Shown here piece by piece: positions 1 through 64,000 of a DNA stretch of 64,000 nt. The stretch comes from Isurus oxyrinchus (Eukaryota). The DNA lies in assembly GCA_026770705.1 (NCBI GenBank), contig JANJGN010000009.1, positions 163,866,001 through 163,930,000 of the forward strand. The letters are read 5' to 3'. Positions within the stretch are counted from its first letter, which is position 1. The number at the start of each line of letters is the position of its first letter. Both the position numbers and the translations under genes were made by a program. The notes under the pieces are model-generated. The model was given only the letters and a program-made list of their open reading frames with translations. It was not told the origin of the DNA and ran no database searches.

Positions 1-19
1 AAATACTTCCACAGGTCAT

Positions 20-629: not shown

Positions 630-760
630 ACCTGGCTTCCTGCTATCTTCTTCCTCATTTAAATTCCTTGTATCATTTATATTAGACACTTACTTCGATG
701 TGAGAAACAAGAGCTGAGTGTCTGGAAACAAGTTCTGTCCTGATCTTTGTGAACAAAACG
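630..760 (+). promoter_or_regulatory. Putative proximal promoter with ETS/PU.1-like sites (duplicated at about 43565-43694)
   Basis: cttcctg (636-642) and cttcctcattt (650-660, reverse AAATGAGGAAG) about 100-125 bp upstream of the ATG; motif match only. Confidence 0.35.
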
Positions 761-797
761 ATGTGGATTTTGATTCTCCTCATTAGTTCTCTGCCCG
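761..797 (+). CDS. Receptor A exon 1, signal peptide (MWILILLISSLP/V)
   Basis: ATG at 761, hydrophobic leader, phase-1 donor G|GTGAGT; joins exon 2 in frame to give LPVSGALW. Confidence 0.9.
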
Positions 798-904
798 GTG
801 AGTGACAGCCAGAGCTGGATGTTCCGATATTCTGAGTTGGTTTAACTCTCGTGCGCTGGTTATACAGGAGATGTTTAAATATTTGGAGACATGCAAAGGC
901 ACAA

Positions 905-1160
905 GAGAGGTCTTGGGCTCAGTGGGTAGTGTCTCTGTATCTGAGCCAGAAGCTCTGTGTTTGAGTCCCACTTCAGTTCTTGTTGAGAATGGAAGGCGCG
1001 TTCTAACCAGGCCCAACAGGTTGATTATCAACCTGAAAATCTTCCAACAGACCTAAGGCTGGTGGGAAGAGGGTTTGAGATCCCAGTGCAACATGTTTGA
1101 TGTGGAGTGGTGCCGCTCATTCTGTTGCCTCCGGAGGTTGTGACCTGTTCCAGGGAAAAC
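905..1160 (+). mobile_element. tRNA-derived SINE remnant in intron 1 (also about 43840-44095)
   Basis: A-box-like gggctcagtggg and B-box-like gtttgagtccc at tRNA spacing. Confidence 0.45.
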
Positions 1161-2659: not shown

Positions 2660-2974
2660 TTTCAGGTGCATTGTGGGCAAAAAAAGAAGTAACAGGAGTT
2701 GTGGGAAGAGCGATCACAATAGAATGTCACTATGATGCACGTTACAAGTCACATATAAAATATTGGTGTTGCGGCTGGAGTCGCCAGTGTAATATTTTAG
2801 TATTGAAAAATCAGCAAAATGGAAGAATATCGATCACAGATAACAAGGCAACAGGAATATTTATTGTTACTATGGTGGATCTTCACTCAAGAGATACAGG
2901 ATGGTACAGCTGTGGTATTGACAAACCTGGCCTCCTCGATTCAATGTTTGCTGTCTGGCTACAAATATCTTACG
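2660..2974 (+). CDS. Receptor A exon 2, V-type Ig domain of CD300/pIgR/TREM (MDIR-like) type
   Basis: Acceptor tctcctcag|, donor tacg|gtat; ITIECHY...KYWC...C...DTGWYSCG with the extra Cys pair typical of CD300/pIgR V domains. Confidence 0.92.
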
Positions 2975-3873
2975 GTATATTTCTTACTGATTTTCTTTAT
3001 TATTCTCAACTGAAATGTCTGCTCAATGTTTTATCTGGGAGGAAACATGACAGCTCCGATATCCCGAGGCTCCACAGCAATGCAGAGACTTAAAGGTAAA
3101 GGGCAGAGGTCGGGAAATCCAACTCATGTTACCCAAACCCAATTCATGGCCTGTCAAACATGTCAGAGTTGAACTTTACAAGTGAACTAAACGGAAATTG
3201 AGAAGTTGTTTTGATGGTAAAAGAAGCCTCTTTATTAATTGTTGAGACATTGGGCTGGATATTCAGCCTCAAAGCGGGTAGGGGCAATTCGGAAAATTCC
3301 CCGCTCGGCCTTGGAAGAAAGTGCCCACAAAGGTGGGATTTCCATTGCTGGGAGCTGTGCCCAGGCTGCAGTCTGGCCAGCCACACCAGGAAGAAATGCA
3401 GAGGCAGCCACAGGGACTGCCGGCTGCGGAGACGGGCTGTTTCAAAGGCCCCTCCTTAATGCCCTTGGACTTTGTAACAGCTAAACTCAAAACACAAAGG
3501 CCCTTCACCCCTCACCCCCCACAGCCCACAAAGAGGGTGGGTATAAGGGGAAAATTTGTCATGAGAGTTCTTGGAGGTGGGTGGAAGTGTACAGCTTGAA
3601 GTCAGGAGCATGATGGATTATAAGGCGTGGGTAAAGGGACATAGGGGGCATTAACGGCCAAACGTGATGGATGAGGATGTGACTTGACATAGGGGGCATG
3701 AGATGGACCTTTTGAACTTAGCTCTTAAAAGGTCCCCTCATGCAAACCAGTGTTTACAGCTCCTCTGAGGGGCTTTGGACTACGACTCATTCAAAACCTG
3801 GCCCGAGTCCATGAAAATTGCAGAGGAGTAGGACGTGTCCATCTCCACAATGGAGGCAGCCAGGTTGGAGAGT

Positions 3874-6800
3874 AAAAAACAAAAATACAAACAAAAAACT
3901 GCGGATGCTGGAAATCCAAAACAAAAAGTAAGAAATACCTGGAAAAACTCAGCAGGTCTGGCAGCATCGGCGGAGAAGAGCACAGTTGATGTTTCGAGTC
4001 CTGATGACCCTTCAACAGAACTAAGTAAAAAGAAGAGAGGGGTGAAATATAAGCTTGTCTAAGGGGTGGGGGTGGGGGTGCGGGTGGTGAGAGAAGGGGA
4101 GAGGTGGTTGTTGGGACAAGCAAGCAGTGATAGGAGGAGATAACCAAAAGATGTCACAGACAAAAGAACAAAGAGGTGTTGAAGGTGGTGATATTATCTA
4201 AAAGAATGTGCTAATTAAGAACGTATAGCAAGACAAGCAAGGTACAGATAGGTCATGTGGGGGTGGGGTGAAATAAGACTAAAAGGGCATAAAATGTATA
4301 GATAAATGATCAGTGGAATACATTAAAAATATTGCAAATAGGTGGGAAAAGAAAAATCTATATAAATTATTGGAAAAAAGAAAAAGGATGGGGAAGAAAT
4401 GGAAAGAGGGTGGGGATGGAGGAGGGAGTTCAAGATCTAAAATTGTTGATCTCAATATTCAGTCCGGAAGGCTGTAAGGTGCCTAGTCGGAAGATGAGGT
4501 GTTGTTCCTCCAGTTTGCGTTGAGCTTCACTGGAACAATGCAGCAAGCCAAGGACAGACATGTGGGCAAGAGAGCAGGGTGGAGTGTTAAAATGGCAAGC
4601 GACAGGGAGGTTTGGGTCATTCTCTGCGGACAGACCGCAGGTGTTCTGCAAAACAATCACCCAGTCTGCGTTTGGTCTTTCCAATGTAGAGGAAACTGCA
4701 TTGGGAGCAACGAATGCAGTAGACTAAGTTGGGGGAAATGCAAGCGAAATGCTGCTTCACTTGAAAGGAGCGTTTGGGCCCTTGGACGGTGAGGAGAGAG
4801 GAATTGAAGGGGCAGGTGTTGCACCTTTTGCGTGGGCATGGGGAGTTGCCATAGGTGGGGGTTGAGGAGTAGAGGGTGATGGAGGAGTGGACCAGAGTGT
4901 CCCAGAGGGAACGATCCCTATGGAATGCCACCGGGGGGGTGAAAGGAAGATGTGTTTGGTGGTGGCTTCATGCTGGAGTTGGTGGAAATGGCGGAGGATG
5001 ATCCTTTGAATGCGGAGGCTGGTGGGGTGATAAGTGAGGACAAGGGGGACCCTATCATGTTTCTGGGAGGGAGGAGAAGGCGTGAGGGTGGATGCGCTGT
5101 AGATGGGCCAGACACGGTTGAGAGCCCTGTCAACGACCGTGGGTGGAAAACCTCAGTTAAGGAAGAAGGAGGACATCTCAGAGGAACTGTTTTTGAAGGT
5201 AGCATCATCGGAACAGATGCGACGGAGGCAAAGGAACTGGGAGAATGGGAAAGTGTCCTTACAGGAAGCGGGGTGTGAGGAGCTGTAGTCGAGGTAGCTG
5301 TGGGAGTCGGTAGGCTTGTAGTGGATATTGGTTGACAGTCTATCACCAGAGATTGAGACACAGAGGTCAAGGAAGGGAAGGGAAGTGTCAGAGATGGACC
5401 ATTTGAAAATGATGGAGGGGTGGAGATTGGAAGCAAAATTAATAAATTTTTCCAGGTCCAAACGAGAGCATGAAGCGGCACCGAAGTAATCATCAATGTA
5501 CCGGAGAAAGAGTTGTGGGAGTGGGCCGGAATAGGACTGGAACAAGGAATGTTCCACATACCCCATAAAGGGACAGGGGCTCATGTGGGTACCCTTAGTC
5601 ACACCTTTTATTTGGAGGAAGTGAGAGGAGTTGAAGGAGAAATTGTTCAGCGTGAGAACAAGTTCAGCCAGACGGAGGAGAGTAGTGGTGGATGGGGATT
5701 GTTCGGGCATCTGTTCGAGGAAAAAGCTAAGGGCCCTCAGACCATCCTGGTGGGGGATGGAGGTGTAGAGGGATTGGACGTCCATGGTGAAGAGGAAACA
5801 GTTGGGGGCAGGGAACTGGAAATTGTTGATGTGACGTAAGGTGTCAGAGGAATCACGGATGTAGGTGGGAAGGGACTGGACAAGGGCAGAGAAAAAGGAT
5901 TCAAGATAACGAGAAATGAGTTCCGTGGGGCAGGAACAGACTGACACGATCAGTCTGCCGGGACAGTTCTGTTTGTGGATTTTGGGTAGGAGGTAGAAGC
6001 GGGCCGTCCGAGGTTGGGCGACTATCAGGTTGGAAGCTGTGGGAGGAAGATCCCCAGAGGGGATGAGGTCAGTGACAGTCCTGGAAACAATGGCTTGATG
6101 TTCAGTGATGGGGTCATGGTCCATGGAGAGGTCGGAGGAAGTGTCTGCGAATTGACGCTCAGCCTCTGTGAGGTAGAGGCCAGTGCGCCAGACAACAACA
6201 GCACCACCCTTGACAGCGGGTTTGATGACAATGTTGGGGTTGGATCTGAGGGAACGGAGTGCAGTAAGTCACAAAACAACTGTTTGCTGAAATGCTAAAC
6301 AAAGATAAATATTGAGATAAAAGCAAAGAACTGCGGATGCTGGAAATGCAAACCAAAGACAGAAATAGAAATATCTGGAAAAACTCAGCAGGTCTGGCAG
6401 CATCGGTGGAGAAGAGCACAGTTGATGTTTCGAGTCCTCATGACCCTTCAACAGAACTAAGTAACAATAGGAAAGGGGTGAAATATAAGCTGGTTTAAGA
6501 GGAAGGTGGGTGTGTTGTTGGGACAAGAAGCCAGTAATAGGTGGAGATAACCAAAAGATGTCACAGACAAAAGAACAAAGAGGTGTTGAAGGTGGTGATA
6601 TTTTCTAAAGGAATGTGCTAATTAAGGGTAGAAAGCAGGACAAGCAAGGTACAGATAGACCTAGTGGGGGTGGGGTGGGGTGAAGGAATACTAAAAATTC
6701 TAAAAATTAGAGATTAACAGTGGATGGAAATACATTTAAAAATAATGGAAATAGTTGGGAAAAGAAAACTCTATATAAACTATTGGAAAAAACAAAAAGT

Positions 6801-9309
6801 GGAGGAAGAAAACGGAAAGGGGATGGAGATGGTGGTTGGGGCCAGAGAACTGGAAATTGTTGATGTGACATAAGGTGTCAGAGGAATCACGGATGTAGGT
6901 GGGAAGGGACTGGACAAGGGGAGAGCGAAGGGAGTCAAGATAATGAGAATTGAGTTCCGTGGGGCAGGAAGAGGCTGACACGATCAGTCTGCCGGGACAG
7001 TCTTGTTTGTGGATTTTGGGTAGGAGGTAGAAGCGGGCTGTCCGAGGTTGGGAGACTATCAGGTTGGAAGCTGTGGGAGGAAGATCTCCAGAGGAGATGA
7101 GGTCAGTGACAGATCTGGAAACAATGGCTTGATGTTCAGTGGTGGGGTCATGGTCCAGGGAGAGGTAGGAGGAAGTGTCTGCGAGTTGACGCTCAGCCTC
7201 CACAAGGTAGAGGTCAGTGCGCCAGACAACAACTGCACCACCCTTGTCAGCGGGTTTGATGGCAATGTTGGGGTTAGGCCTGAGAGAATGGAGTGCAGTA
7301 TGTTCAGAGAGAGACAGGTTAGAATGGGTGAGAGGAGCAGAGAAATTGAGACGACTAATGTCACGCCGACAGTTCTCAATGAAAAGATCAAGAGAAGGTA
7401 AGAATCCAGAGGGAGGGGTCCAGGTGGAGGGAGAATATTGGAGGTGGGTAAAAGGATCCGTTGAATGGGGAGAGGACTCCTGCCCAAAGAAGTGAGCCCG
7501 GAGACGAAGACGGTGGAAGAAGAGTTCAGCATCATGCCGAGCCCGAAATTCATTGAGGTGAGGACGTAAGGATATGAAACTAAGTCCTTTGCTGAGCACT
7601 GAACGTTCAGCATCAGAGAGGGGAAGGTCAGGGTGTATAGTGAATACCCGACCGGGGCTGGGATTGGAAGATGGTGTGGGGACAGAGGGACAGGCAGGGT
7701 TGGAGGGTCCTGGATGTGTGTTGGTATCACTGAGTTGTTGCAGCTTGCGTTCCTTAGCACTTGAGAGAAAGAGAAAAGGTTTCTTGTTGAGGCGACGGAT
7801 GAGACGAAGAATAGAATGAAACTGGGGGCACGGGCAGCTTTGGAAAGGGGTACGGCGATGCTGCTGGAGGGAGAGGTCGAATGTGTTCATATGGCAGCGC
7901 ATGGCACTGAGTGTGGATCTCAGAATGCAACGGGAACAGTATTCCGAGGAATGTTGTATGTCCCAGAGATACCTGTAATCCTGGGTTGGTTCGAATCCGA
8001 TGGAATTTCAGTTGAGATCCACATGGGGTAAGTCGGAGACGGAGACAGTCACTGAGAAAGGAAATATGGCTGTGAAAGTGGGTTTTAGTAAACACCTTGT
8101 CAAACAGCAGGAGAGAAATGGAAAGCAATGAAGGTAAATAAGGCAAAAGAGAGATATGAAAATCCTGACGGAGAGTAGTACAAAACTTCTTTAAGGTAGG
8201 GATGTCTTGAAGAGAAGTGGCAGTCAATTAAACACGGATAAAAGCAAAAAACTGCGGATGCTGGAAATTCAAAACAAAAACAGAAACATAAATAGCTGGA
8301 AAAACTCAGCAGGTCTGGCAGCATCAGCGGAAAGAGCACAGTTGATGTTTCGAGTCCTCATGACCCATCAACAGAACTAAGTAAAAATAGGAGAGGGGTG
8401 AAATATAAGCTGGTCTAAGGGGTGGGGGTGGGTGGTGGTGGAGGGAGAAGTTGTTGGGACAAGCAAGCAGTGATAGGAGGAGATAACCAAAAGATGTCAC
8501 AGACAAATGAACAAAGAGGTGTTGAAGGTGGCGATATTATCCAAAAGATTGTGCTAATTAAGGATGGGTAGCAGGACAAGCAAGGTACATGGTGGCATCA
8601 TGCTGCAGTTGGAGGCGGAAATGGCGGAGAATGATCCTTTAGTGCGGAGGCTGGTGGAGTGATAAGTGAGGACAAGGGAGACCTCTTCATGTTTCTGGTA
8701 GACTTGCTGCCTTCTTCCAGTGAAGCTCAATGCAAACCGGAGGAACAGCACCTCATCTTCCGACTAGGCACTTTAGAGCCATTGGGACTGAATATTAAGT
8801 TCAACAATTTTAGATCATAAACTCCCTCCTCCATCCCCACCCCCTTTCTGTTTCTTCCCCCTCCTTTTTCCTTTTTCCAATACTTTATATAGATTTTTCT
8901 TTTCCCACCTATTTCCATTATTTTTAATGTATTCCACCGATCATTTATCTATACCTTTTAAGCCCTTTAAGTCTTATTTCACCCCACCCTCCACTAGAGC
9001 TATCTGTACCTTGATTGTCCTGCTATCCATTCTTAATTAGCACATTCTTTTAGATGATGTCACCACATTCAACACCTCTTTGTTCTTTTGTCTGTGACAT
9101 CTTTGGGTTATCGCCTCCTATCACTGCTTGCTTGTCCCAACAACTACCGCCGACTTCTCTCTCCACCGCCCCCCCCGCCCCCCGACCCATTAGACCAGCT
9201 TATATTTCACCCCTTTCCTATTTTTACTTCGTTCTGTTGAAGGGTCATAAGGACTCTAAATGTCAACTGTGCTCTTCTCCGCCGATGCTGCCAGACCTGC
9301 TGAGTTTTT
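3874..9309 (-). mobile_element. Composite Penelope-like element (Neptune type): partial-tandem ORF pieces, three pseudo-LTRs and one inverted pseudo-LTR
   Basis: RT with YIDD (5153-6124), CxxxxCxxC linker and GIY-YIG endonuclease (LVYCIRC..C..LYIGKT, 4430-4931), N-terminal ORF part 6830-8240; 14-bp TSD ccaggttgg(a/g)gagt at 3860-3873 and 9310-9323; frameshifted and deleted. Confidence 0.93.
3984..4022 (-). ncRNA. Minimal type I hammerhead-ribozyme motif in Penelope pseudo-LTR (also 6420-6458 and 8340-8378; B copies 46918-46956, 49354-49392, 51274-51312)
   Basis: agtt-CTGTTGA-a-gggtc-loop-gactc-GAAA-ca-TC-aact; stems I and II pair. Confidence 0.6.
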
Positions 9310-9692
9310 CCAGGTTGGGGAGTTCTGGGTGTGGCTTTTGAATGAGCCAGCCTGTATCCTTTAAAGCTGCTCCCAAAATCACACAACCCAGGAACGCAGT
9401 TGGGAATCCCAGAATTAGGACACACCCGCCATTTTTAAAGGGCTCCTGAATCAACCCAAGTTGGTGAAATCCAGGCCGTCACTTTGGTCTGAAGGCTGCA
9501 CAAAGCACAGGGTAGAGGCCCTGGACTGAGACACCTGCCTTTATCTTGTACAGAAAGTGTTCACATGTGAGTGACATGAACATTGCTCATCAAAACAAGG
9601 AGCGATAGGCAGGGAGACATTCTTTGGAGTTTATTGACAATAATGAACAGTATGTACAAGTGATTAACACCCGTGCCCAGGACGTGCAACTG

Positions 9693-9764
9693 GCCTAAAT
9701 AGCCAAGTGGTTATGGTACTGGGTTTGTAACCCCAAGATCAGGAATTCAAATCTCACAATGGCA
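9693..9764 (+). pseudogene. tRNA-Thr(UGU)-like pseudogene or SINE head (duplicate 52625-52696)
   Basis: 72 nt, A box TAGCCAAGTGG, anticodon arm ggg-tt-TGT-aa-ccc, TTCAAATC T-loop; acceptor stem pairs only 3 of 7. Confidence 0.6.
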
Positions 9765-9824
9765 AAATATGAAACAATGTAACTTGATCTGAATAGGAAC
9801 AGATGGAAATGTGTTTGTACTCAA

Positions 9825-11091
9825 AAGAGTTACATTTCCTCAACTCTCGAGGCCTTCCGTGCTCAGTGGGGACTGGGGTGCTTTATTGACCCCTTTTAGC
9901 ACTTTTTGGTTTAAAGTTGTAAGTTTCCTTTAAACTTCGTTCTTGGTTTTACAGCTGACCTAAATTAGGGGCTGTCCCTTATTTATCCTAATTTTGTAAA
10001 TTTAGTTTAATTGTTTTGACTCTATAAGAGTTACATCTCCTCAACCCCCGTAATATGAGCCGCCTCGGGGACATGTTCTCTGTGCCATTTGGCACAGCAA
10101 AGAGGAGCTTTTTGTACGGACTGCTGCTGCACATCTTCCATTTTCTCGCCCTTCTCCGCCGCCTGGATATGCCCTGGCATGCCTTGTTGCCTTCCGGCAG
10201 CGGAGGCCCCCGATGGGAGGCCCTCTGAGGAGGTGTCCTCCCCCTTTCTATCGGGGACCTGGGTTCGAGGGTGTTGCATGCAGCAGTCCCCTATAATAGG
10301 AGAATTCATAGGTTCACGGACTCCCAAGACACATGCCCTTTTCGTGGTCTTGTGGAGTCCGTGGACCATGCATACATAGGGTGTGGTAGGTTGCACTCCC
10401 TTTTCAGTTACTTGATGAACCTTTTGTTAATGTTTTGTTTGCACTTCAGCCCCACGCTCCTGATCTATGGACACCCGGTGCGGAAGGGGGTCGGAAAGGA
10501 GGAGGACCTCCTCGTGAACCTGCTCCTGGGCCTGGCCAAGTTGGCCATTAACAGGTCCAGGCAGCAGGCGATCGAAGGGGGAGTCCCGCCCAATTATTTA
10601 TCCCTCTTCCGCGGCTACGGTCGCAGCCGGATGTCCCTGGAAAGGGAGCATGCGGTGTCTGCCGGCACTCTCGAACCCTTCCGTGCTCGGTGGGCACCGC
10701 GGGGACTGGGGTGTTTTGTTGACCTCTTTTATCACATTTTGGTTTAAAGTTGTAAGTTTCCTTCAAACTTTGTTCTTGGTTTTACAGCTGACCTGAATTA
10801 GGGGCTGTGCCTGATTTATCCCAATTTTGTTAATTTAGTTTAATTGCTTTGACTCTATAAGAGTTACATCTCCTCAACTCTCGAGACCTTCTGTGCTCGA
10901 TGGGTGACCACGGGGGTTGGGGTGCTTTATCCAGCCTCTTAATCACATTTTGGTTTGATGTTGTAAGTTTCCTTTAAATCCTGTCTTTGGTTTTGCAGTG
11001 ACCCTAACTTAGGGGCTGCGTTTTATTCTGTTCCTCATTTTGTTAATTTAGTTTATTTGTTTGGCTTTAAAAGAGCTACATCTTCTCAACT
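9825..11091 (+). mobile_element. Three tandem 5'-truncated Tx1-clade non-LTR retrotransposon 3' ends separated by a 21-bp direct repeat
   Basis: ORF2 C-terminus CPF.G..ESVDHAYIGC..L..LF...NLLLGLAKLAI..SR; shared T-rich 3'UTR; repeat aagagttacatctcctcaact x4. Confidence 0.8.
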
Positions 11092-12622
11092 TTCCTAATC
11101 CTCCCGCTACATCTTGGTGCTCCGCAGACATCCAGAGTGGAAGTAAAGACAGTCTGCAGACTGCTATGCTCTGTCTGTGATAATTTTTGGCGGGCGTCCT
11201 CTGGAGGCCTGAGGCCTGGAGGGCCCCGGCTTCCTTTCGAGGTCCTGCTGTGTGGCATTACCACCCTCCTTGGCCTGTGGACCTGGAGCTGTCAAGGTCA
11301 CAGTAAGAGGGGAGTTACCAGGATGAATGGCCCCGGAGGGTACACATGTTGATCCTTCTCGCTATTGGCTGAATTAGCGAGCAGCAGGGGTAGCTGAAGT
11401 GAGATTGAGCTGCCCGCACCCCTCTCTCATACACACTGTCAGGGGCCAACTATACATCAGCAATGGAGTTCAGCCCCACAGCAGTGTAGGAACGGTGCCC
11501 TGGACCAACATCTCCAAGGCACCTACGATCCTACCAGTGTTGACCTTGGTGCATTGACATGCCAGCGCTATCACCTCAGAGTGCAGGTGGATGGATTCCT
11601 CCATATTAACTGAAAATTTTATTTAAAAAGAGAGAAGGTCACCATCTAATCCTTTATTAACTGTGTTTAATTGTATGCAGTGGTAGCATTAAACAGATGT
11701 CTTCAGGTCTGGGCCTTGTACACACTGTCTCCTGGGAGTTCTGACCAGCTACCCTGCTGTCTTCAGGGAGATCTGGCCAACCATCCTGCTGTGTTCTGGG
11801 AGATCTAAGCAGCTACCCCCTCACATAGGCTTCAGTATTCCCTTAAATGTGTTTCTTCTCTTTCATCTCTCTTTGTTGCAACCAGTCTGAAAAGAAATGC
11901 TTTTCTTCAAAGGATTGATTAAATCAATCTTTACCTCTTAGACTTGTAAAAACAAACTTACTCTATGTTTATGTCACGTCCTTACACCTTTTTACAACCT
12001 GCATATATCTCCCTTTGAACTAAAACAACACAATTCAAACTATTTCTGTTATTGCTTCATGTACAAGTCTGTTGTAGTTCTTTTTTGTTTATTAACATAT
12101 CAAAACCACTTCAAATTGTTGACTTTTGACCCTATCCACTGATGAGGCAGTCCATGTCATGGAACCATAACCTTAAATCTGGAGATAGGCTCGTCAGGGA
12201 TGTCAGGAATCACTTCTTCACGCAAAGTATAGCGGAAATCAGGAACACTCTCCTCAAAAAAGCTCTTGAACTTAAATGAAAATTTCAAAACTGATTGACA
12301 GATTTTATCTGGTAGCAATATTCGGGTTATGGGACCCCGGTAGGTAAATGGACAGAAGATACTGGTCAGTTGGGATTTAATTGAATTGTGGAACAGGCTG
12401 AAGGGGCTGCATGTCCGAATCCCTTTTCCATGTTCTGGAGCCCCAGTTAATTTTTCAGTGGTCTGGGCCTTGTGAGTAACAATGTGCTGTGAAACAAGCT
12501 CACAAACAGTTAGCATTTCAAAGAGACACTTTCCAATCACCAGGCAAACTGTGACCTGTGTTGTTTCAGAGTACAGTTTGTGACAGTGAAAGCAGTGAAG
12601 GCCTGCCAAACCTCATTAAAAT

Positions 12623-12762
12623 CAAGTTCTGTCGAAGGGTCATGAGGACTCGAAACGTCAACTCTTTTCTTCTCCATCGATGCTGCCAGACCTGCTGAGT
12701 TTTTCCAGGTAATTCTGTTTTTGTTTTGGATTTCCAGCATCCGCAGTTTTCTTTGTTTTTAT
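12623..12762 (+). mobile_element. Short Penelope pseudo-LTR 3' fragment with hammerhead motif at 12625-12663 (duplicate 55549-55688)
   Basis: 11-bp TSD ctcattaaaat at 12612-12622 and 12763-12773. Confidence 0.85.
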
Positions 12763-14231
12763 CTCATTAAAATGTTGGTGAAATTGTCACTTTTCTCTGG
12801 CTAATCCCTTGACCAAAGAGGGAATTTTAATTCCCCTCCCCCATCCTGCATCGTGTTGAGGCATGATGGGATTTGCTGGATCCAGAACCTTCTCCAGCAC
12901 GGCTTGTGATCCAGGAGACACACGAAAGCTTCACCCCCACCCCCAGGCAAATGTTTTATACAATTTCTCCCTCCCCATGATTGGCCAATCCTGCCCCAAG
13001 CAGCAAAGTCACCCTGACTCCCTCCTCGCTGTTGTGCTCCGAGGCAACATTCCCACCAATTTCCAAACTTTTACCATAACGTTCCTACTTGGAAACCAGC
13101 CAAACATTCAATCAGTGTGCAAGAATTCTGGTGAGATTTTGCTGTTAAATTCGGCACAAACTCAACATTCCTGGTATTTCCAGCTTTCTCACCACCCCAC
13201 GCACAGTCCCCCCTCTCGTCTCCACGTACCAGGGTTGAAGTGTTCTATCGCAGCATGCAGAGAACCAGAGCCAATCACATTTACATTCTTATCCAAAGCT
13301 ACAAAACATGTAACCGATATCTGACAACATTTTGCCCTCATTTTACCCTTTGCTTTTCTAAGATTCTCTCCAACCAATTCACATTCAACTCACAAACAAT
13401 GAAACAGCATTGGAGGCTCACTACCAGCTACGAAGAGATATTGTTCACCATGATATTCATGTTAACATACTCTCAGTATCATAGCTGCTGTTCTGATCTG
13501 GAGACCTGATATGTTCTGATATAATGGCTGAAAGGGTAACTCAGGCCTCTAAGAGGATGGAGAGATATGGGGATGGATTTTTAAAAAGTATGGTGTCAGG
13601 ATTAGAGATGGGTGGGTGTGAAATTTGACACCGCTGGTCTCCATGCCAATTTACTGTTACAATCCCAAGCCCGAAACATTTAGAAAGCAGGCGGCTTGCA
13701 GTCAAGTGGTGGGCAGCTAACTTAGGAAATAACATTTACCAAAGGGGCCAATTAAAGACCCATTCCTGCGCCCACTGGGATTTCATTCAGCAATGCAAGC
13801 AGACCACATTACCCCTTCAGGATCATGGCCCGGCAGCTGCCGGGTTTTGAAACATAAAATAAACTTACCTGGACTTTCCCCTTGCTGTCTCCATGCTCAG
13901 GTCAGCAACTCCCACCTCACCTGGTGAGGCCCTCTAGCATCAGGAGCCCGCCCTCTGTCCCTGATTGGATGGTGAGCCAGTTCCAGTCTTTTGATTGGCT
14001 AGAACATTGAAAATTGCAGTGGGCATGCCTAAAGAATGGTGAATGGTGTCAGGACCTGAAACTATCTCCCATGTCCAGTTCCCAAACCCAAATTTAACAT
14101 CCACCCCATAGAGTGGTAGATGTGTTGGTGAGATTCCAACATGGCAGAGCCTGGCTGAGATGAAGTGCAAAGTTTGAAGAGTATTTGATTATTAAATGTT
14201 CAGTATCTGAATGTTTCTTTCTTTCCAACAG

Positions 14232-14561
14232 AACCCGTGTCTGTTCCTGTGCTTAGATTTTCATCACCAGCAAATGTCTCATGTTCTGGGGGTTCAGTGT
14301 CCGTCTCCTGTGAGTCTGTCCAGGGATCCCTTCCCATTCAGTACACATGGTATGAAAAGAACCTGTCTGAAGATTCAAAGATCTCTGACACCAATAAACT
14401 GGATCTACATTGTCAATCCTTCAAACAGCAACATCATCAATATTACTGCACAGCCTCAAATAATCAGGGAGTAAAATCCAGTGACACTGTCACTGTTAAC
14501 TCAACACTCATGAATGTAACAACGAAAAGCTACAGTTATGTGATACAAATTGGAAACATTG
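14232..14561 (+). CDS. Receptor A exon 3, C2-type Ig domain
   Basis: ccaacag|AACCC acceptor, attg|gtaagt donor, phase 1/1; EPVSVPVL...VSCES..GSLPIQYTWY...YYCTASN. Confidence 0.92.
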
Positions 14562-14949
14562 GTAAGTGTTACTTTCTACAAACAACGTGGCGAATGAATG
14601 TTTAAAATTCATGTCTATCCAAACTGGTCACTGTTTCAGTTCCTTCAGTTTATCTGAGAAATTGCAGCTGGCCAAATTCACTCTCTCTGGTTCCTCAAAC
14701 ATTCTGAACAAGGTCACTAAGTTGCATTTTTCATGAAAAATGGACAGGATCAGAAAATATCCCCAAAACATGCAAAAATATTGCAGAATCTCCAATAAAC
14801 CCATCGAATCAAAATAGCATTTGATTGACAGAGCTTTCATAAAGCAATTTGTCTATTTCCAGCAGATGGAATTGTGAAATGCAACCTCCAACTGTTGTGT
14901 CCTAGTTTGGGAAGGATATCACTGATAGAATAGAGAAGAATTGAATTAA

Positions 14950-15345
14950 AATGAACCCTTGGATGAGAGGTTTTAGTCATGAGGAAAGTATCATCACAAC
15001 TGAGGTGAATGACCAGCTGGAGGACGTGGAAATTGTTAGAAATTTGGATAAGATAACTCTAACTATTTCCACTAGTCAGTGAGTCAGCAACAAGAGAGCA
15101 TTAACTTTAAAATTATCACTAAAAGGACAAAGGGAGAAATTTGGAGAATTTTATTGATGCAAACTGTTTTTAGGACATGGAATGCCCAACTGAAATAAGT
15201 TTACAAACAAATTTAATAATAGATTTTAAAAGGGAAACAAATGTATGAGGGTGTGGGAAAAGGACAATGAAATGGAATTAAATGAGGAGATCATTCAGAG
15301 AACCAGCATTGGAGCGATGGGCTGAATTCCCTCCCCTGTGTTGTA
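14950..15345 (+). mobile_element. Decayed CR1 3' fragment (duplicate about 57880-58275)
   Basis: CR1-like RT end and 3' tail (gatgggctgaat...). Confidence 0.45.
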
Positions 15346-15829
15346 AAAATTCCATCATTCCAGACAAAATCTCAACTTATCCTGTCTAAAAAATTAACTA
15401 TTCCCTCCCCATAAAACAATGACCCTGGTTCTGAAACAAGGAGGACTTTAGCCTATTTGAATGTAGCGGTTCAATTTTCTGCAGAGTGGGTGCAGCATGT
15501 TCACCGAGAAACACCAACATGGGCACAAAACAAAGAGAATCACATTTTCACCTGAGCAGCAGGAGACAGGAATTTACATATGCAAATATATTGACTCTGG
15601 TCATGTGGTCTCTTGCCTCAGTTGTCAGGGAAGAAGGGTGGAATTTTACACCCCCATTGCGCCAGGGACTGGGCTGTAAAATGCAGCCAGCCATTCTAAA
15701 CTCCATGCACTCCAGCAGGACCATAAAATCCCACTGTCACAAGGCTCTGAGCAAAGGCTGTCAGCAGCAGGTAGAAATTACACCTGTAAACTGTGTTTGT
15801 ACTGGAGTTGTCAGCAGGGACTCAGTTGC

Positions 15830-16310
15830 ACTCTGACCTTTGATGCCAGTCTTTTGTAGTTACAAGTTCCCCTTAAGAGTTAAAATTCGGGCTGATACCA
15901 TGATCCAGCACTGAGGTAGTGCTATACTGGTGGTGGTGCTGCTGTGTAGATGAGGTATTAAACTGAGGATCCACGTCCCCGTTAGGTAGATGTAAACATT
16001 TCCAGGGTATTATTCACAGAATAGGGAAGTTCTCCTGGTGTCCTTGACGCCTTTATTCCTCAACCAATACACACAAATTGGGAGCAGGAGCAGGCTATTT
16101 GGTCTTTTGAGCCTGTTAATGTCACTAGAAAACAGATCATCTAGTGAATGTTTTACTGATGTTTGTGGGGCTTTGCTGTGTACGAATTAACTTCCACGTT
16201 TCTTGATATTAAAACTGTGGCTTTACTTCAAAAAAGTACTTCATAGGCTCTGAAGCACTTTGGGATATCCCAAGGTTGTGAAAGGTGATGAATCAACACA
16301 CATTGTTTCT
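15830..16310 (+). mobile_element. Decayed DeuSINE (SacSINE1-like) (duplicate about 58760-59240)
   Basis: Similar to the SINE copies at 17980 and 21955. Confidence 0.55.
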
Positions 16311-16870
16311 TACTTTTTGAAACAAATGATTTATTAAAATACATCTGAACCAATTATCTGAGTGCAAACGGCAGGGGGGAGGGGGAGGGAGGAGCCAGTC
16401 CCAGCAGCAAGGTGGGTCATTATAATTAAATGGACAGAAAATCACTGGCAGGTTTGAGACATTCATGGTCTGTTGGTGAAGATTCTCATCTTTACTGCAA
16501 GCTCAGAAAACTGCCCCCAAAGGGCAGAAAGTGACCATTGCCAGTATTAGGATGTGACTGTTTAATGTGTTCACATGAAATTCATGTAATGAAAGTGTAT
16601 CTCTGGATTGTAGTCCACCAACCTGAGCCCTTAACTGGCCCACCAACTCTCAGATATAGTAAAGAAAGTGGAATTACCAGTAAAGATAGATCACCACCAA
16701 GTATCTGCGACCTCTCCACTTGTGACCAGAGAGGGGTAAATAACACAGAAATCAATTCTACCAGCCAGGCTTTTCCTCAATTAATGAGGTTCCATTTGAC
16801 AATGATGCTCTTTCAGTTGACTACAAGTGAAAATGAGCTGAATCTGAATGTTATTCCCTTGTGTCAACAG

Positions 16871-16988
16871 GACCTGAGTATTTTTGTGATGTTTCTACAA
16901 CAGTATCACCAACTACACATTTGACAAGTACAGATATAATTTCCACTACCAATCGATCCACACCTTCAGATCCCGAAAATCCTGAAAG
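16871..16988 (+). CDS. Receptor A exon 4, Ser/Thr-rich stalk (GPEYFCDVSTTVSPTTHLTSTDIISTTNRSTPSDPENPE)
   Basis: tcaacag| acceptor, aag|gtac donor; phase 1 in, phase 2 out, matching exons 3 and 5. Confidence 0.85.
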
Positions 16989-17979
16989 GTACAATGTTCT
17001 CATGGATTGGCATTGCTTCCATATGTGAGAGATACGATTGGCCAAAGGAGTGAAAGTTGTTCATTAATTTGGAAAGTAGCTCATCAGAATGGAAATGGTG
17101 GCTGGGTTTATATCATGCTGTTGTGTTAGCTTCTTAATGAGGGTGCATTTTTCTGTTGGAAAATACAAGCAAGGAGTGAGCTTTTCCATTGTGTTGCCGC
17201 TCAGATGGTGTTTTTTGCCTTATTCACCTTGATTACTTCACCGCTAAGGTAATCTCACAGTGTGTGAGGAGTTGTACTTGTCAAACTTACCTTGCTGCTG
17301 TCTACACTGACAGAGTACTTGTATTTGGGCTGATGAAAAGGAAGAATTAGCGTGATATATCTGCACATCCTTTGGTTTCACTAATGAGAGACATCTTGCA
17401 GCTCTCGGCCCGTTTCCATATTATAAACCTAAGCTGTTGACGATAAGTAGCAGAAATTGTAGTCCGATGTAAACACTCAGGAATCGGGTCTTTGAAGTTA
17501 CAATGGTGATAAAGAGAAAACGCCAACTAAATGTCAAACAGAAAGAGGGACAGTTGGAAATGGACAGCAGGTATGTCCGCAGCTGTGGAGAAAATAAACA
17601 CGTTCATGGTTTGGGTGCAGACACTTCTTCAGAATTCTAGTCCACACACGAAGTGAAACAGGTCCACTCACCCCACAGATCCCAACTGAGCTGCTGAATG
17701 TTTCCAGAATCTTCTGTTTTCCATTCATATTTCTAGCACATGCAGTGCACTTACTTTTATCCAGATTATTGTCAATGATTTAAGAAGTATAGAAAGTATC
17801 TGATTTTTATTTTAAGACAAATCTCTATGTCTGCTCTGTTGTATAAAGTTGACAACAAAGATCATCTGAATATGAAATCCATATATGTATGAAACAGTTA
17901 TTACTTCCACTTTTTTCAGGGAACATCAGGTATTCTTGCATTTGGATTTTAATAATTAAAACTGACTCAGTATTAAACA

Positions 17980-18410
17980 AGGCTCAGTGGTAACACACTC
18001 ACCTTACATGTCAAAGGCTGTGGGTTCACTTCCACTCCAGAGACCTCAGCACATTATCTTGGCTGACACTCCAGTGCACTACTGAGGGAGTGCTGTGCTG
18101 TTGGAGGTGCCACCTCTCAGATGTGATACACCCAAGGCCCATCTGCTCTCTCAGGTGGGTGTAACAGATCCCATAGTGACATTCATAGAAGAGCAGGGCA
18201 GTTCTCCCTCGAGACCTGGGCAACATCACTAAAAAAAACAAATTATTTGTTCATCCAACTAATTGCTATTTGTGGGAGCATGCTGTGTGCAAATTGAGTG
18301 CCACATTTGCCAAATTACCACAGTTACACTGCATTAAAAATATTCATTGCTTGTAAAGTGCTTTGGGATGTCCTGAGGTCATGAAAGCCACTTTATAAAT
18401 ATCTACCTTT
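17980..18410 (+). mobile_element. DeuSINE (SacSINE1-like)
   Basis: ggctcagtgg head, actgagggagtgctg...gatcccat.g..ac.attc..agaagagcaggg core, ctttgggatgtcctgaggt tail. Confidence 0.7.
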
Positions 18411-18485
18411 AAATATTTCTTTAAACAAATGGCCAATAATCAATTGTGAACCAACACTGTACCTTGTCTATTCTCTGTTTCACAG

Positions 18486-18574
18486 TCTGATTTACATTGT
18501 GCTCGGAGTGCTGGGGGGCATTCTTGTGGTGTTTGCTGTTTCTCTACTTCTGTACCTGAGGCAAATCAACAAGG
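18486..18574 (+). CDS. Receptor A exon 5, uncharged transmembrane helix (SLIYIVLGVLGGILVVFAVSLLLYLRQINK)
   Basis: tttcacag| acceptor, aagg|gtgagt donor; about 24 uncharged residues then a basic stop-transfer. Confidence 0.9.
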
Positions 18575-18714
18575 GTGAGTTTTTATTTCTCTTTAATCAT
18601 TTTATTATATGGCAATAATTTGCTGCAGAAGGAAAGAATATACAGTTTGTTGGATCAATCAACAATCACCCATGACCCTAGTATTCTCATTCTGGTCTAC
18701 ACATATTGAACATG

Positions 18715-20664: not shown

Positions 20665-20717
20665 GTACAAACTGCATTCCAAGTCAGCGGAGAGACAAGA
20701 CTCTCCATTATAATCAG
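20665..20717 (+). CDS. Receptor A exon 6, juxtamembrane cytoplasmic (GTNCIPSQRRDKTLHYNQ)
   Basis: tttttcag| acceptor, cag|gtaagg donor; phase 1 in, phase 0 out bridges exons 5 and 7. Confidence 0.8.
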
Positions 20718-21347: not shown

Positions 21348-21659
21348 GAATTGGCAGCAGAGGAAGAGGGCACTGTGTATGCAAATGTAAACCACACTCA
21401 AAGGAGCTCGGCAGGAACACACAGAGAGGGAACTGCCGAGTTGAATAATGAGGAAATCACATATGCAGCAGTGCAATTACAAAAGAAATCGTCTACACAG
21501 AGAGGTGAAGGGACAAGTCACTCAGTTAACAACCCGGACAGTGTCATCTACAGTGGAGTCATGATTCACAACCAGCCCACAAAGAAAAACCCTAAAACTC
21601 CATTACATGATACTCCCCAGGAATCTGAAATGGCAATTTATGCTACCGTTACTCATTAG
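21348..21659 (+). CDS. Receptor A exon 7, cytoplasmic tail with ITSM/ITIM motifs (TVYANV, ITYAAV, VIYSGV, AIYATV) and stop
   Basis: tatttag|GAA acceptor in frame with ORF 21351-21659; four YxxV motifs. Confidence 0.9.
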   Translation, partial: ELAAEEEGTVYANVNHTQRSSAGTHREGTAELNNEEITYAAVQLQKKSSTQRGEGTSHSVNNPDSVIYSGVMIHNQPTKKNPKTPLHDTPQESEMAIYATVTH

Positions 21660-34608: not shown

Positions 34609-34611
34609 AGG

Positions 34612-43694: not shown

Positions 43695-43731
43695 ATGTGG
43701 ATTTTGATTCTCCTCATTAGTTCTCTGCCCG
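43695..43731 (+). CDS. Receptor B exon 1, signal peptide
   Basis: Identical to 761-797. Confidence 0.9.
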
Positions 43732-45593: not shown

Positions 45594-45908
45594 TTTCAGG
45601 TGCATTGTGGGCAAAAAAAGAAGTAACAGGAGTTGTGGGAAGAGCGATCACAATAGAATGTCACTATGATGCACGTTACAAGTCACATATAAAATATTGG
45701 TGTTGCGGCTGGAGTCGCCAGTGTAATATTTTAGTATTGAAAAATCAGCAAAATGGAAGAATATCGATCACAGATAACAAGGCAACAGGAATATTTATTG
45801 TTACTATGGTGGATCTTCACTCAAGAGATACAGGATGGTACAGCTGTGGTATTGACAAACCTGGCCTCCTCGATTCAATGTTTGCTGTCTGGCTACAAAT
45901 ATCTTACG
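45594..45908 (+). CDS. Receptor B exon 2, V-type Ig domain
   Basis: No nucleotide difference from 2660-2974 seen; donor g|gtacat. Confidence 0.92.
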
Positions 45909-57159: not shown

Positions 57160-57489
57160 AACCCGTGTCTGTTCCTGTGCTTAGATTTTCATCACCAGCA
57201 AATGTCTCATGTTCTGGGGGTTCAGTGTCCGTCTCCTGTGAGTCTGTCCAGGGATCCCTTCCCATTCAGTACACATGGTATGAAAAGAACCTGTCTGAAG
57301 ATTCAAAGATCTCTGACACCAAGAAACTGGATCTACATTGTCAATCCTTCAAACAGCAACATCATCAATATTACTGCACAGCCTCGAATAATCAGGGAGT
57401 AAAATCCAGTGACACTGTCACTGTTAACTCAACACTCATGAATGTAACAACGAAAAGCTACAGTTATGTGATACAAATTGGAAACATTG
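57160..57489 (+). CDS. Receptor B exon 3, C2-type Ig domain
   Basis: As exon 3 of A except DTNKL>DTKKL; splice sites intact. Confidence 0.92.
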
Positions 57490-59813
57490 GTAAGTGTTAC
57501 TTTCTACAAACAACGTGGCGAATGAATGTTTTAAATTCATGTCTATCCAAACTGGTCACTGTTTCAGTTCCTTCAGTTTATCTGAGAAATTGCAACTGGC
57601 CAAATTCACTCTCTCTGGTTCCTCAAACATTCTGAACAAGGTCACTAAGTTGCATTTTTCATGAAAAATGGACAGGATCAGAAAATATCCCCAAAACATG
57701 CAAAAATATTGCCGAATCTCCAATAAACCCATCGAATCAAAATAGCATTTGATTGACAGAGCTTTCATAAAGTAATTTGTCTATTTCCAGCAGATGGAAT
57801 TGTGAAATGCAACCTCCAACTGTTGTGTCCTAGTTTGGGAAGGATATCACTGATAGAATAGAGAAGAATTGAATTAAAATGAACCCTTGGATGAGAGGTT
57901 TTAGTCATGAGGAAAGTATCATCACAACTGAGGTGAATGACCAGCTGGAGGACGTGGAAATTGTTAGAAATTTGGATAAGGTAACTCTAACTATTTCCAC
58001 TAGTCAGTGAGTCAGCAACAAGAGAGCATTAACTTTAAAATTATCACTAAAAGGACAAAGGGAGAAATTTGGAGAATTTTATTGATGCAAACTGTTTTTA
58101 GGACATGGAATGCCCAACTGAAATAAGTTTACAAACAAATTTAATAATAGATTTTAAAAGGGAAACAAATGTATGAGGGTGTGGGAAAAGGACAATGAAA
58201 TGGAATTAAATGAGGAGATCATTCAGAGAACCAGCATTCGAGTGATGGGCTGAATTCCCTCCCCTGTGTTGTAAAAATTCCATCATTCCAGTCAAAATCT
58301 CAAATTATCCTGTATAAAAAATTAACTATTCGCTCCCCATAAAACAATGACCCTGGTTCTGAAACAAGGATGACTTTAGCCTATTTGAATGTAGCGGTTC
58401 AATTTTCTGCAGAGTGGGTGCAGCATGTTCACTGAGAAACACCAACATGGGCACAAAACAAAGAGAATCACATTTTCACCTGAGCAGCAGGAGACAGGAA
58501 TTTACATATGCAAATATATTGACTCTGGTCATGTGGTCTCTTGCCTCAGTCGTCAGGGAAGAAGGGTGGAATTTTACACCCCCATTGCGGCAGGGACTGG
58601 GCTGTAAAATGCAGCCAGCCATTCTAAACTCCATGCACTCCAGCAGGACCATAAAATCCAACTGTCACAAGGCTCAGACCAAAGGCTGTCAGCAGCAGGT
58701 AGAAATTACACCTGTAAACTGTGTTTGTACTGGAGTTGTCAGCAGGGACTCAGTTGCACTCTGACCTTTGATGCCAGTCTTTTGTAGTTACAAGTTCCCC
58801 TTAAGAGTTAAAATTCGGGCTGATACCATGATCCAGCTCTGAGGTAGTGCTATACTGGTGGTGGTGCTGCTGTGTAGATGAGGTATTAAACTGAGGATCC
58901 ACATCCCCCTTAGGTAGATGTAAACATTTCCAGGGTATTATTCACAGAATAGGGAAGTTCTCCTGGCGTCCTTGAAGCCTTTATTCCTCAACCAATACAC
59001 ACAAATTGGGAGCAGGAGCAGGCCATTTGGTCTTTTGAGCCTGTTAATGTCACTACAAAACAGATCATCTAGTGAATGTTTTACTGATGTTTGTGGGGCT
59101 TTGCTGTGTACGAATTAACTTCCACGTTTCTTGATATTAAAACTGTGGCTTTACTTCAAAAAAGTACTTCATAGGCTCTGAAGCACTTTGGAATATCCCA
59201 AGGTTGTGAAAGGTGATGAATCAACACAACTTGTTTCTTACTTTTTGAAACAAACCATTTATTAAAATACATCTGAAACAATTATCTGAGTGCAAACTGC
59301 AGGGGGGGGAGGGGGAGGGAGGAGCCAGTCCCAGCAGCAAGGTGGTCATTATAATTAAATGGTCAGAAAATCACTGGCAGGTTTGAGACATTCATGGTCA
59401 GTGGGTGAAGATTGTCATCTTTACTGCAAGCTCAGAAAACTGCCCCCAAAGTGCAGAAAGTGACCATTGCCAGTATTAGGATGTGACTGTTTAATGTGTT
59501 CACATGAAATTCATGTCAAGAAAGTGTATCTCTGGATTGCAGTCCACCAACTTGAGCCCTTATCAGGCCCACTAGTAACTCTGTCCCACCAACTCTCAGA
59601 TATAGGAAAGAAAGTGAAATTACCAGTAAAGATAGACCACCAGGTATCAGCAACCTCTCCACTTGTGACCAGAGAGGGGTAAATTACACAGAAATCAATT
59701 CTACCAGCCAGGCTTTTCCTCAATTAATGAGGTTCCATTTGACAATGATGCTCTCTCAGTTGAATACAAGTGAAAATGAGGTGAATCTGAATGTTATTCC
59801 CTTGTGTCAACAG

Positions 59814-59931
59814 GACGTGAGTATTGTTGTGAAGCTTGTACAAGAGTATCACCAACTACATATTTGACAAGTACAGATATAATTTCCACTACCAATCGAG
59901 CCACAACTTCAGATCCCGAAAATGCTGAAAG
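59814..59931 (+). CDS. Receptor B exon 4, stalk (GREYCCEACTRVSPTTYLTSTDIISTTNRATTSDPENAE)
   Basis: Same length and splice sites as A exon 4; 10 substitutions. Confidence 0.85.
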
Positions 59932-60742
59932 GTACAATGTTCTCATGGATTGGCATTGCTTCCATATGTGAGAGATACAATTGGCCAAAGGAGTGAAAGT
60001 TGTTCATTAATTGTAAAGTAGCTCATCAGAATGGAAATGGTGGCTGGGTTTATATCATGCTGTTGTGTTAGCTTCTTAATGAGGCTGCATTTTTCTGTTG
60101 GAAAATACAAGCAAGGAGTGAGCTTTTCCATTGTGTTGCCGCTCAGATGGTGTTTTTTGCCTTATTCACCTTGATTACTTCACCGCTAAGGTAATCTCAC
60201 AGTGTGTGAGGAGTTGTACTTGTCAAACTTACCTTGCTGCTGTCTACACTGACAGAGTACTTGTATTTGGGCTGATGAAAAGGAAGAATTAGCGTGATAT
60301 ATCTGCACATCCCTTGGTTTCACTAATGAGAGACATCTTGCAACTCTGGTCCCATTTCCATATTATTAGCCTAAGCTGTTGACAATAAGTAGCAGAAATT
60401 GTAGTCCGATGTAAACACTCAGGAATCAGGTCTTTGAAGTTACAATGGTGATAAAGAGAAAATGCCAACTAAATGTCAAACAGAAAGAGGGACAGTTGGA
60501 AATGGACAGCAGGTATGTCCGCAGCTGTGGAGAAAATAAACACGTTCATGGTTTGGGTGCAGACACTTCTTCAGAATTCTAGTCCACACACGAAGCGAAG
60601 CAGGTCCACTCACCCCACAGATCCCAACTGAGCTGCTGAATGTTTCCAGAATCTTCTGTTTTCCATTCATATTTCTAGCACATGCAGTGCTCTTACTTTT
60701 ATCCAGATTATTGTCAATGATTTAAAAAGGATTGAAAGTCTA

Positions 60743-61020
60743 TGGTCTGAATTTTCCGCTCGGCGGGGGTGGGGGTGGGGTAGAGCGGGAGCGAGCACGG
60801 GCAGCTGTGGACCCCATCGCCATCCACCATTGGGTTTTTGACGCCATTTTGCGCGGGCGGCCAATTTAGGCCATCCCAGCGTATTTCCCGGCTCCCGAGG
60901 ATAGCGGCAGTGGGCGAGAAGCGGGGAGTGTGCACAGACAACCGGGTCCAATGGTGACCCAGCGGCCTGTTTAAATGAAGGCCTGGCAGCCTGTTCCAGC
61001 TGCTCACAATGGCCAGTGCA
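60743..61020. mobile_element. Truncated Harbinger-type MITE at the duplication breakpoint
   Basis: Begins ggtctgaattttcc (family TIR), GC-rich body; no right TIR found. Confidence 0.55.
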
Positions 61021-61275
61021 AAGAATTTTCACTTACAATTTAGCTTTGTATTACAGTTAGACATTATGGACATGCTAAAGAAATTTGCTTCGTTTGATTT
61101 TTATCTAACGATCATGAAGTTGATAAGTAAAACTTTAGCTGATTCTTTCAGCTAAAGTCCCTTGTCTACTTTATGTTGCTGCAAAAAATTACAGTGTAAA
61201 GCAGAGAGTCATGTTTCAAAAATGAAACAGTCTCATTTCATTTAAATGGTTTGATATTTCTTCTCTTTTGCTCAG

Positions 61276-61366
61276 TTACATTATCTGGGATGTGATACGC
61301 TGGGTGCTCTTTACTCTCCTGGTGATTTGTGCTGTTTCAGGCACATGGTGTACGAGAAAATCTAAG
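61276..61366 (+). CDS. Receptor B exon 5, transmembrane helix with charged residues (SYIIWDVIRWVLFTLLVICAVSGTWCTRKSK), activating type
   Basis: ttctcttttgctcag| acceptor in phase 2 matching exon 4; aag|gtgaga donor; hydrophobic helix with Arg near its N-terminal end; no similarity to A exon 5. Confidence 0.8.
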
Positions 61367-61411
61367 GTGAGAGTTATGGACTGTATAAGAATCATTATGG
61401 GCAGTTTGCAA

Positions 61412-63310: not shown

Positions 63311-63439
63311 GCTTACGCTCTCTCCATCTGTATTCCTGCAGAACAAGCTGGATGATGTCAGGGATCTGACACTTACTGAGAATATAGGAGTCACGGACAC
63401 TCCCTTGGAATCGCACGCAGACCCGTGGAAGCTCTTGCT

Positions 63440-64000
63440 GTTTGTTTAAATATTTCTTGCCATTCCATCTCATAATCATCTTTCTCCCTCTTTATTCGTT
63501 TTTTGGTCATCTGCTGCTGGTTCCTAAAAAGTTCCTAATCCTCAAGCATACCATTAGTTTTCCCCCCTTTTTATACTTTAGTTGTTGATTGGATACTCTC
63601 TCTGACTGCCGTCGTTAACCATGGGTGGTTCATCCTTCTCATCAAGTCCTTCCTTTTGAGCGGGATAAATTTTTTCTGAGCGTTATGAAATATTTACTTA
63701 AATGTCTGCCACTGCTCACCCACTGACCTTCCTGTTAGTCTATTCTCCCAGCCAACTCTTCCTTCATAACTCTGTAATTGGCCTTATTTAGGTTGAGGAC
63801 ACTGGTTTTAGAGACGAGCTGCTCACCCTCAAACAGAATTTCAAATTCTACAATGTTGTGTGATCGCTATCCCCTAGAGGATCCCTAACTACACGATCTC
63901 TTATGAATCCTACCTCATTACGCATTGCTAGATGCAAAATAGCCTGTTCCCAAGTAGGTTATGCAACATATTGCTGAAAGAAACTATCCTTGGTACACTC
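63440..64000 (-). mobile_element. CR1 LINE endonuclease-to-RT linker fragment
   Basis: Minus strand resembles 40500-41010 (DPLGD, W, HPWLT motifs). Confidence 0.55.

Follow-up and report, generated by a model that had tools for sequence, protein, structure and literature searches.

How does one and the same V domain come to stand in front of two signalling tails of opposite type? The question is raised by two adjacent genes, A and B, that lie in the same orientation in a stretch of Isurus oxyrinchus DNA (the window, 64,000 nucleotides in all) and whose V exons differ at none of 315 bp. Immune gene families are known to recombine heads and tails. An initial annotation of this DNA proposed recent 5' exchange between two such genes on top of an older duplication. 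Part of this holds, as the receptors are of paired type, their 5' parts changed partners recently and the split between their tails is old; the two-gene pair does not, as we find an array of 27 assembled copies instead. We put at roughly 80% the probability that B is best explained by the whole array and by unequal crossing-over within it, B being a mosaic in which a V1 head of the inhibitory family is joined to a stalk and tail of the activating family.

Two receptor genes with tails of opposite type

In both A and B the exons follow the order leader, V, C2, stalk and transmembrane segment (TM) (Table 1). The best PDB matches of the gene A V domain are pIgR and CMRF35-like molecule 1 (CD300f), and skate MDIR2 matches it at 61% identity. 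Neither A nor B has a Pfam match in its TM and tail exons. In the tail of A lie TVYANV, ITYAAV, VIYSGV and AIYATV, which we take to be ITSM/ITIM-like motifs. The TM of B has the same motif class as that of skate MDIR5, and its cytoplasmic exon matches the tail that follows a B-type TM in public protein P0003. In a putative RNA run (X18), one contig has C2, stalk and B-type TM spliced together at GT..AG; with 7 C2 differences from B, it derives from another copy. Given these motifs, the two genes are predicted to pass opposite signals from behind the same V domain, as other paired receptors do.

Table 1. Coordinates in the window of the features of genes A and B.
Feature	Position	Strand	Basis
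Gene A exon 1, leader	761..797	+	ATG and GT donor; translation
Gene A exon 2, V-set Ig domain of pIgR/CD300 type, V1	2660..2974	+	Pfam V-set, E=1e-8
Gene A exon 3, C2-type Ig	14232..14561	+	Pfam Ig_3/Ig_2; 73% over 89 aa to skate MDIR5
Gene A exon 4, Ser/Thr-rich stalk, 1 Cys	16871..16988	+	A/B divergence peak
End of shared block in A, intron 4	17797	+	older paralogue colinear through this point
Gene A exon 5, uncharged transmembrane helix	18486..18574	+	translation
Gene A exon 6, cytoplasmic, predicted	20665..20717	+	AG/GT, open frame; residue similarity to public protein P0011
Gene A last coding exon, with TVYANV, ITYAAV, VIYSGV, AIYATV	21348..21659	+	translation
Gene B exon 1, leader	43695..43731	+	
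Gene B V exon, V1 head	45594..45908	+	
Gene B C2 exon	57160..57489	+	donor site used in spliced contig, putative RNA run
Ancestry-switch zone of B (A coordinates 14586-16264)	57514..59192	+	triplet max-chi breaks
17-bp indel, present in B, absent from A	59563..59579	+	A/B alignment
Gene B stalk exon, 3 Cys (YCCEAC)	59814..59931	+	spliced to C2 and TM exons, run X18
Truncated dispersed repeat, left end at breakpoint	60742..61015	+	dispersed matches
Activating-type 3' part of intron 4 in B	61003..61275	+	similarity to older B-type paralogue
Gene B TM exon, Asp and Arg in helix (IIWDVIRWVLF)	61276..61366	+	translation; spliced contig
Gene B cytoplasmic exon without tyrosine, 3' end uncertain	63342..63449	+	translation

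Two further observations concern gene A. In its intron 4, ten bases between AG and GT (window 17921-17930) resemble a micro-exon and are partly kept in the older A paralogue; the reading frame runs from exon 4 into the TM exon even when they are left out. Compared with older paralogues (L096-L097, L001), the C2 core (14234-14482) differs by 3-5%, with third positions differing at 3-5 of 83, and the A-type TM exon with 55 bp of intron (18431-18573) by 3.5%, and the flanks of both islands differ by 18-27% (p<=1e-4). Such exon-sized islands of identity with distant paralogues fit short-tract conversion reaching beyond the array, or unusual constraint.

Divergence along the shared block is a step and a peak

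Window positions 1-17797 (copy A) and 42936-60739 (copy B) align as a 17.8-kb block at 98.6% identity. The shared DNA reaches more than 5 kb 5' of the window start for A and to ~35.6 kb on the B side, more than 23 kb in total and mostly non-coding. It takes in the promoter, the leader, an intron of 11 kb filled with TEs, and the C2 exon as well as the V exon, which contradicts the proposal that exchange was limited to the ligand-binding exons. The block's largest indel being 17 bp, all TE insertions are common to A and B, as the initial annotation had seen; the indel is the one it had placed near 59573 at about 15 bp (Table 1). The shared head unit has, close to its 5' end, two G+A-rich tandem repeat copies and a CA-rich minisatellite (34600-36070, 37600-38400).

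Divergence is not uniform along the block. The sliding-window comparison that had been suggested bears this out, as the observed 1600-bp maximum was reached in 0 of 5000 uniform simulations. The denser substitutions noticed by eye from ~16.2 kb are likewise real: the 16199 bp before position 16200 hold 142 (0.88%) and the 1598 bp that follow hold 56 (3.5%; Fisher p=3e-15). By segment, divergence is 0.80% in 1-14561, 1.47% in 14562-16263 (the rise begins at ~15.3 kb) and 4.45% in 16264-16870; it reaches 8.47% in the stalk exon, 16871-16988, and then drops to 2.35% in intron 4 up to the break. What had been read as a gradient of identity toward the break is a step followed by a peak, with divergence falling again beside the break. 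A monotonic A/B gradient is ruled out by the step at ~16.2 kb, the stalk peak and the low value in intron 4. The DNA up to ~15.2 kb had been described as differing only at scattered positions; a second island of divergence lies within it.

This island (4.3%, window 4983-5515) lies inside the TE-rich intron 2; the B alleles in it are common to array members g06 and g18, and partly to g02, and A differs. The A/B differences in 15001-17797 are rich in transversions (49 of 77, against 48 of 121 in 1-15000).

Homology does end at 17797/60739, within intron 4. The diverged part before the break includes one exon of the ectodomain, that of the stalk.

The array combines two heads with two tails

Searching the genome gave 27 long matches at 94-100% identity within 0.9 Mb. 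A (g16) and B (g17) are two of these 27 assembled tandem copies of pIgR/CD300-like (MDIR-like) genes. Exon mapping divides the assembled array into 13 genes with tail A, a neutral TM and ITIM-like motifs, and 14 with tail B, an Asp/Arg TM without such motifs. The heads fall into classes V1 and V2, and all four combinations with the tails are present: 7 V1-A, 3 V1-B, 4 V2-A and 11 V2-B, besides one A-tail gene with a mixed V and one without V. Between V1 and V2 the difference is 11% for the V exon against 4-5% for the flanking introns (p<3e-5 in 3 of 3 pairs), a figure at odds with concerted evolution of V exons across the array, and pN exceeds pS (0.128 vs 0.054, significant in one of three pairs).

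The array shows further irregularities. In the V exons of g02, g08, g10, g21 and g22, V1 and V2 alleles form a patchwork whose tracts span tens of bases. Three genes at the array's left end, g02, g03 and g04, are inverted (C9, 163.40-163.46 Mb); exon mapping found neither a leader nor a V exon in g04. Genes g11 (C9, 163.70 Mb) and g23 (C9, 164.13 Mb) each have two C2 exons and a truncated first stalk, and their products may be V-C2-C2 receptors in which an A-like stalk precedes a B tail. A 53.8-kb block is present twice at 99% identity (C9, 163724067-163777812 and 164186427-164240207) and stops exactly at the intron-4 break, past which g13 proceeds into an A tail and g26 into a B tail. This pair may represent a tail swap at the same position, and the two blocks are possibly alleles.

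One junction in intron 4 is common to all B-tail genes

All 14 B-tail genes match across the B junction at 96-100%, which indicates that it arose once. B is the derived side, as an older A-type paralogue ~220 kb left of the array is colinear with A, aligning unbroken across 17797 (17038-18654, 74%). Further 3', positions 61003-61411 of B are 80.6% identical to an older B-type paralogue and have no match in the A tail. At the break itself lies a truncated repeat, 60742-61015, with 26 dispersed matches at 76-81% among the 40 scored. All eight copies of it that were fetched start at the breakpoint and continue for 400-680 bp, beyond the cut in B. The cut falls where ~9 bases are common to the repeat and the older B intron, which suggests that the junction was made by a microhomology-mediated join. 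Since the tails are non-homologous beyond the intron-4 break, exchange halts there. A 149-bp read contig covers 60710-60858 with 11 differences; only ~30 of its letters lie left of the break and it is not counted as junction support.

Does selection hold the stalk to the tail?

The peak of divergence at the stalk exon allows two accounts. Selection may tie the 3-Cys stalk to the activating TM, for example through a disulphide-linked dimer, so that the stalk would resist exchange; alternatively, the stalk is neutrally linked to a non-homologous tail. The first is compatible with a mosaic origin of B, and we hold it to be possible, at somewhat less than even odds. In its favor, net divergence between A-tail and B-tail genes peaks not by the break but at the stalk: it is 4.4% there, 2.3% immediately before it and 1.1% where intron 4 approaches the break (p=0.002 for the stalk compared with intron 4). 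Of 118 bases in the exon 10 differ between A and B, all 10 nonsynonymous, and three cysteines are found, almost invariant, in 12 of the 14 B genes and in none of the 13 A genes. Divergence peaks of this kind under gene conversion are described as a signature of selection in the accessible part of PMC3924837. Against it, the statistics are borderline (p=0.058 both for the ten nonsynonymous differences and for the stalk against upstream intron 3), and A stalks differ by 4.9% among themselves, so that the exon may be loosely constrained. Moreover, g11 and g23 join a B tail to a 1-Cys stalk, and B units of basking shark and sawshark have A-like stalks.

B is a mosaic of two array families

With which members of the array does B share its parts? 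Up to position 14586 (A coordinates) B is closest to g18 and g06, both V1-A, at 0.54-0.55%; A comes fifth, at 0.80%. From 16264 onward B differs by 0.26-0.33% from g25, g26, g12 and g24 and by 3.66% from A. The change is seen most directly against g12, a V2-B gene, which differs from B by 4.23% up to 14586 and by 0.33% from 16264. Triplet max-chi analysis places the breaks in B at 14586-14604 (against g12) and 16217-16264 (against g09), at values reached in 0 of 500 permutations. Because ancestry switches inside B, the apparent A/B gradient is simply the point at which B ceases its kinship with A. Sites diagnostic of tail type, comparing A-tail with B-tail genes, cluster on the far side of the switch, with 28 of 29 within 16264-17791. 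Switch points vary by gene: g10 changes after 16370, g11 and g23 after the stalk exon, and g24 breaks against g12 at 15466-15662. The differing break in g24 and the breadth of the switch zone in B (14.6-16.3 kb) point to more than one event in the history of B. The three V1-B copies, B, g24 and g26, are 0.68-0.84% apart and have in common eight private alleles that flank the 14.6-kb switch on both sides, which disfavors an assembler chimera for B.

It is likely that this mosaic arose by unequal crossing-over between array members, although a single assembly fits crossover and long conversion tracts alike. No V1 exon linked to a B tail was found among the reads and transcripts. A stable pair of genes, in which conversion of the ligand-binding exons recurs and fades toward the tail as in the SIGLEC5/14 model, might be expected from the proximity, common orientation, identical V exons and opposite tails of A and B, and short conversion-like tracts do exist in the array, such as the V patchwork in g02, g08, g10 and g22. 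Yet A is just the fifth-nearest relative of the B head, the 3' part of B is close kin to four other array genes and no decayed copy of A, divergence drops again beside the break, and more than 23 kb of mostly non-coding DNA are shared; we therefore regard such a pair as very improbable.

How many copies are real?

Read depth in another sample speaks to the copy number. The array is covered at 3.3-3.6 reads per run against a nominal 0.38, which corresponds to ~9 copies; control bins give 1.8 reads per run and an array/control ratio of ~2, but at 4.7 times nominal depth this single-copy control fails to calibrate. The depth bins were chosen by eye and repeat-rich ones dropped (of 30, 20 were used for the shared block, with 2 for the B tail; in a second set, 8 and 5 of 30). 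In run X1 contig depth is 9-13 in four single-copy pieces, 20 and 43 in two others and 99-124 in two array pieces, values that are not copy numbers. By depth the copies would number ~9 or fewer, and the assembly may overcount them at 27. Five gene pairs in the assembly are only 0.07-0.28% apart and mostly colinear. Low depth together with near-identical pairs would fit either a tandem joining of two haplotypes or true differences from animal to animal.

Very improbable, to our mind, is that B itself is an assembly artefact, in which the head of a V1-A gene was wrongly joined to the tail of a V2-B gene during assembly of 97-99% identical repeats or of two haplotypes: the depth, the near-identical colinear pairs and a short run of N (mask or gap) between the two genes speak for it, but the private alleles that flank the switch in three distinct V1-B copies, the mixing of heads and tails in independent assemblies of other species and the splicing of a B-type exon chain in another sample all speak against it. 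An overcounted copy number is likely, and is a separate issue from B being false.

Heads and tails in other cartilaginous fish

The closest public proteins to these receptors come from white shark and basking shark. The public set held 150 proteins, 147 of them labelled by species, with 68 units in which V, C2 and a recognisable TM follow in order. The ectodomain tree has 74 rows: 67 public chondrichthyan units, left after removal of one whose stalk was aberrant, and 7 of the 26 array genes that have a V. Public protein models are automated and some fuse neighbouring genes, a warning that automated shark gene models merge adjacent array members.

Tail type changes 15 times on this tree (bootstrap 14-16; shuffled mean 23.9), and fully supported clades containing both A and B units occur within sawshark, sevengill shark, zebra shark and epaulette shark. 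In sawshark an identical run of 48 residues stands ahead of either TM. The cross-species comparison of V and TM that the initial annotation had suggested comes out in favor of exchange on these grounds, though for V and C2 a B unit is closer to an A of its own species than to a B of another in no more than 7 of 13 species, and for the stalk in 5 of 13. TM similarity tracks type in 13 of 13 species, which is partly circular, the TM having set the label. The TM tree, with one change, is circular as its labels were taken from the TM motif, and is not used as evidence. A check independent of that label is the presence of at least one tyrosine motif, found in all 27 A units and in one B unit out of 40. 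Ectodomains cluster by lineage; skate MDIR2 and MDIR5 fall within a ray/skate clade, and one-to-one orthology of array genes to a skate gene did not emerge from the tree. The two TM modules persist across sharks and rays.

These results suggest an order of events. The two TM/tail modules would be ancient. An inhibitory-type 5' region through intron 4 would then have been joined once to an activating tail, at the truncated repeat, a non-homologous point that exchange could not cross. Sequence just 5' of the junction would have diverged between tail types, and later crossovers, at various points in introns 3 and 4, would have swapped heads, one of them producing the ancestor of B, g24 and g26.

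A wider picture can be drawn, and taken jointly we consider it tentative, indeed doubtful. Two ancient signalling cassettes may have been refitted, lineage by lineage, to the current ectodomain with intron 4 as the hinge. The activating cassette would have captured a Cys-rich stalk under selection, yielding a dimeric activating receptor, and V exons would diversify under ligand pressure. The array would then be a germline system of mix-and-match, its copy number varying between individuals.

Comparison with known systems

The nearest known system is the MDIR family of the clearnose skate, described as a multigene family of activating and inhibitory receptors in the accessible part of PMC3031540. 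The likeness is broad: the V domain is 61-62% identical to MDIR2/MDIR5 and the C2 domain 73% to MDIR5, the V is related to CD300/TREM/pIgR, and the layout V-C2-stalk-TM is the same (as read in MDIR2/3/5). MDIR5 carries a W..V.RW TM, MDIR2/3 carry a neutral TM and Tyr tails, and both forms are mirrored in the array, again a multigene family with activating and inhibitory forms as predicted from motifs (here 14 B-tail and 13 A-tail genes). MDIR-type genes are annotated as 'pIgR-like' or 'CMRF35-like' in shark and ray genomes. Unlike MDIR, the genes studied here are single V-C2 genes in an array that is young and specific to its lineage; they are 94-99.9% identical, and their points of exchange can be seen in the genomic DNA. 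A search of listings of mainly open-access literature found no paper on head/tail exchange in the shark pIgR/CD300-like family, and the accessible part of PMC6795676 holds nothing on that family.

SIGLEC5/SIGLEC14 and SIGLEC11/SIGLEC16 resemble A and B in being adjacent genes with a near-identical ligand-binding domain, opposite tails and 5' exchange; as in SIGLEC5/14, sequence motifs set an ITIM-like tail against a charged TM with a short tail. According to the accessible part of PMC4042635, SIGLEC5/14 is a two-gene pair with conversion over the first two domains only and with fusion alleles. In contrast to these two-gene pairs, the shark family comprises many copies with heads of two classes, changes over at several different points and shares over 23 kb of DNA.

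A closer pattern is found in CEACAM arrays. KIR fusion genes, for their part, were formed by unequal crossing-over. CEACAM shows concerted evolution in a multigene immune family, in which CEACAM32 co-opts a different TM exon (PMC7042247, accessible part). Both CEACAM and KIR are mammalian Ig families unrelated to the shark family, which, unlike them, keeps two TM modules across sharks and rays. The case also carries a warning: identity plots of two copies taken from within a large array show ancestry switches that resemble gradients. The array offers matched test material: one V domain comes with tails of both inhibitory and activating type, and one tail comes with two different stalks. It is a real and well-resolved case of a known mode of immune-receptor evolution, and extends the head/tail shuffling of paired receptors, known in mammalian Siglecs and CEACAMs, to a shark family in which the points of exchange can be read base by base.
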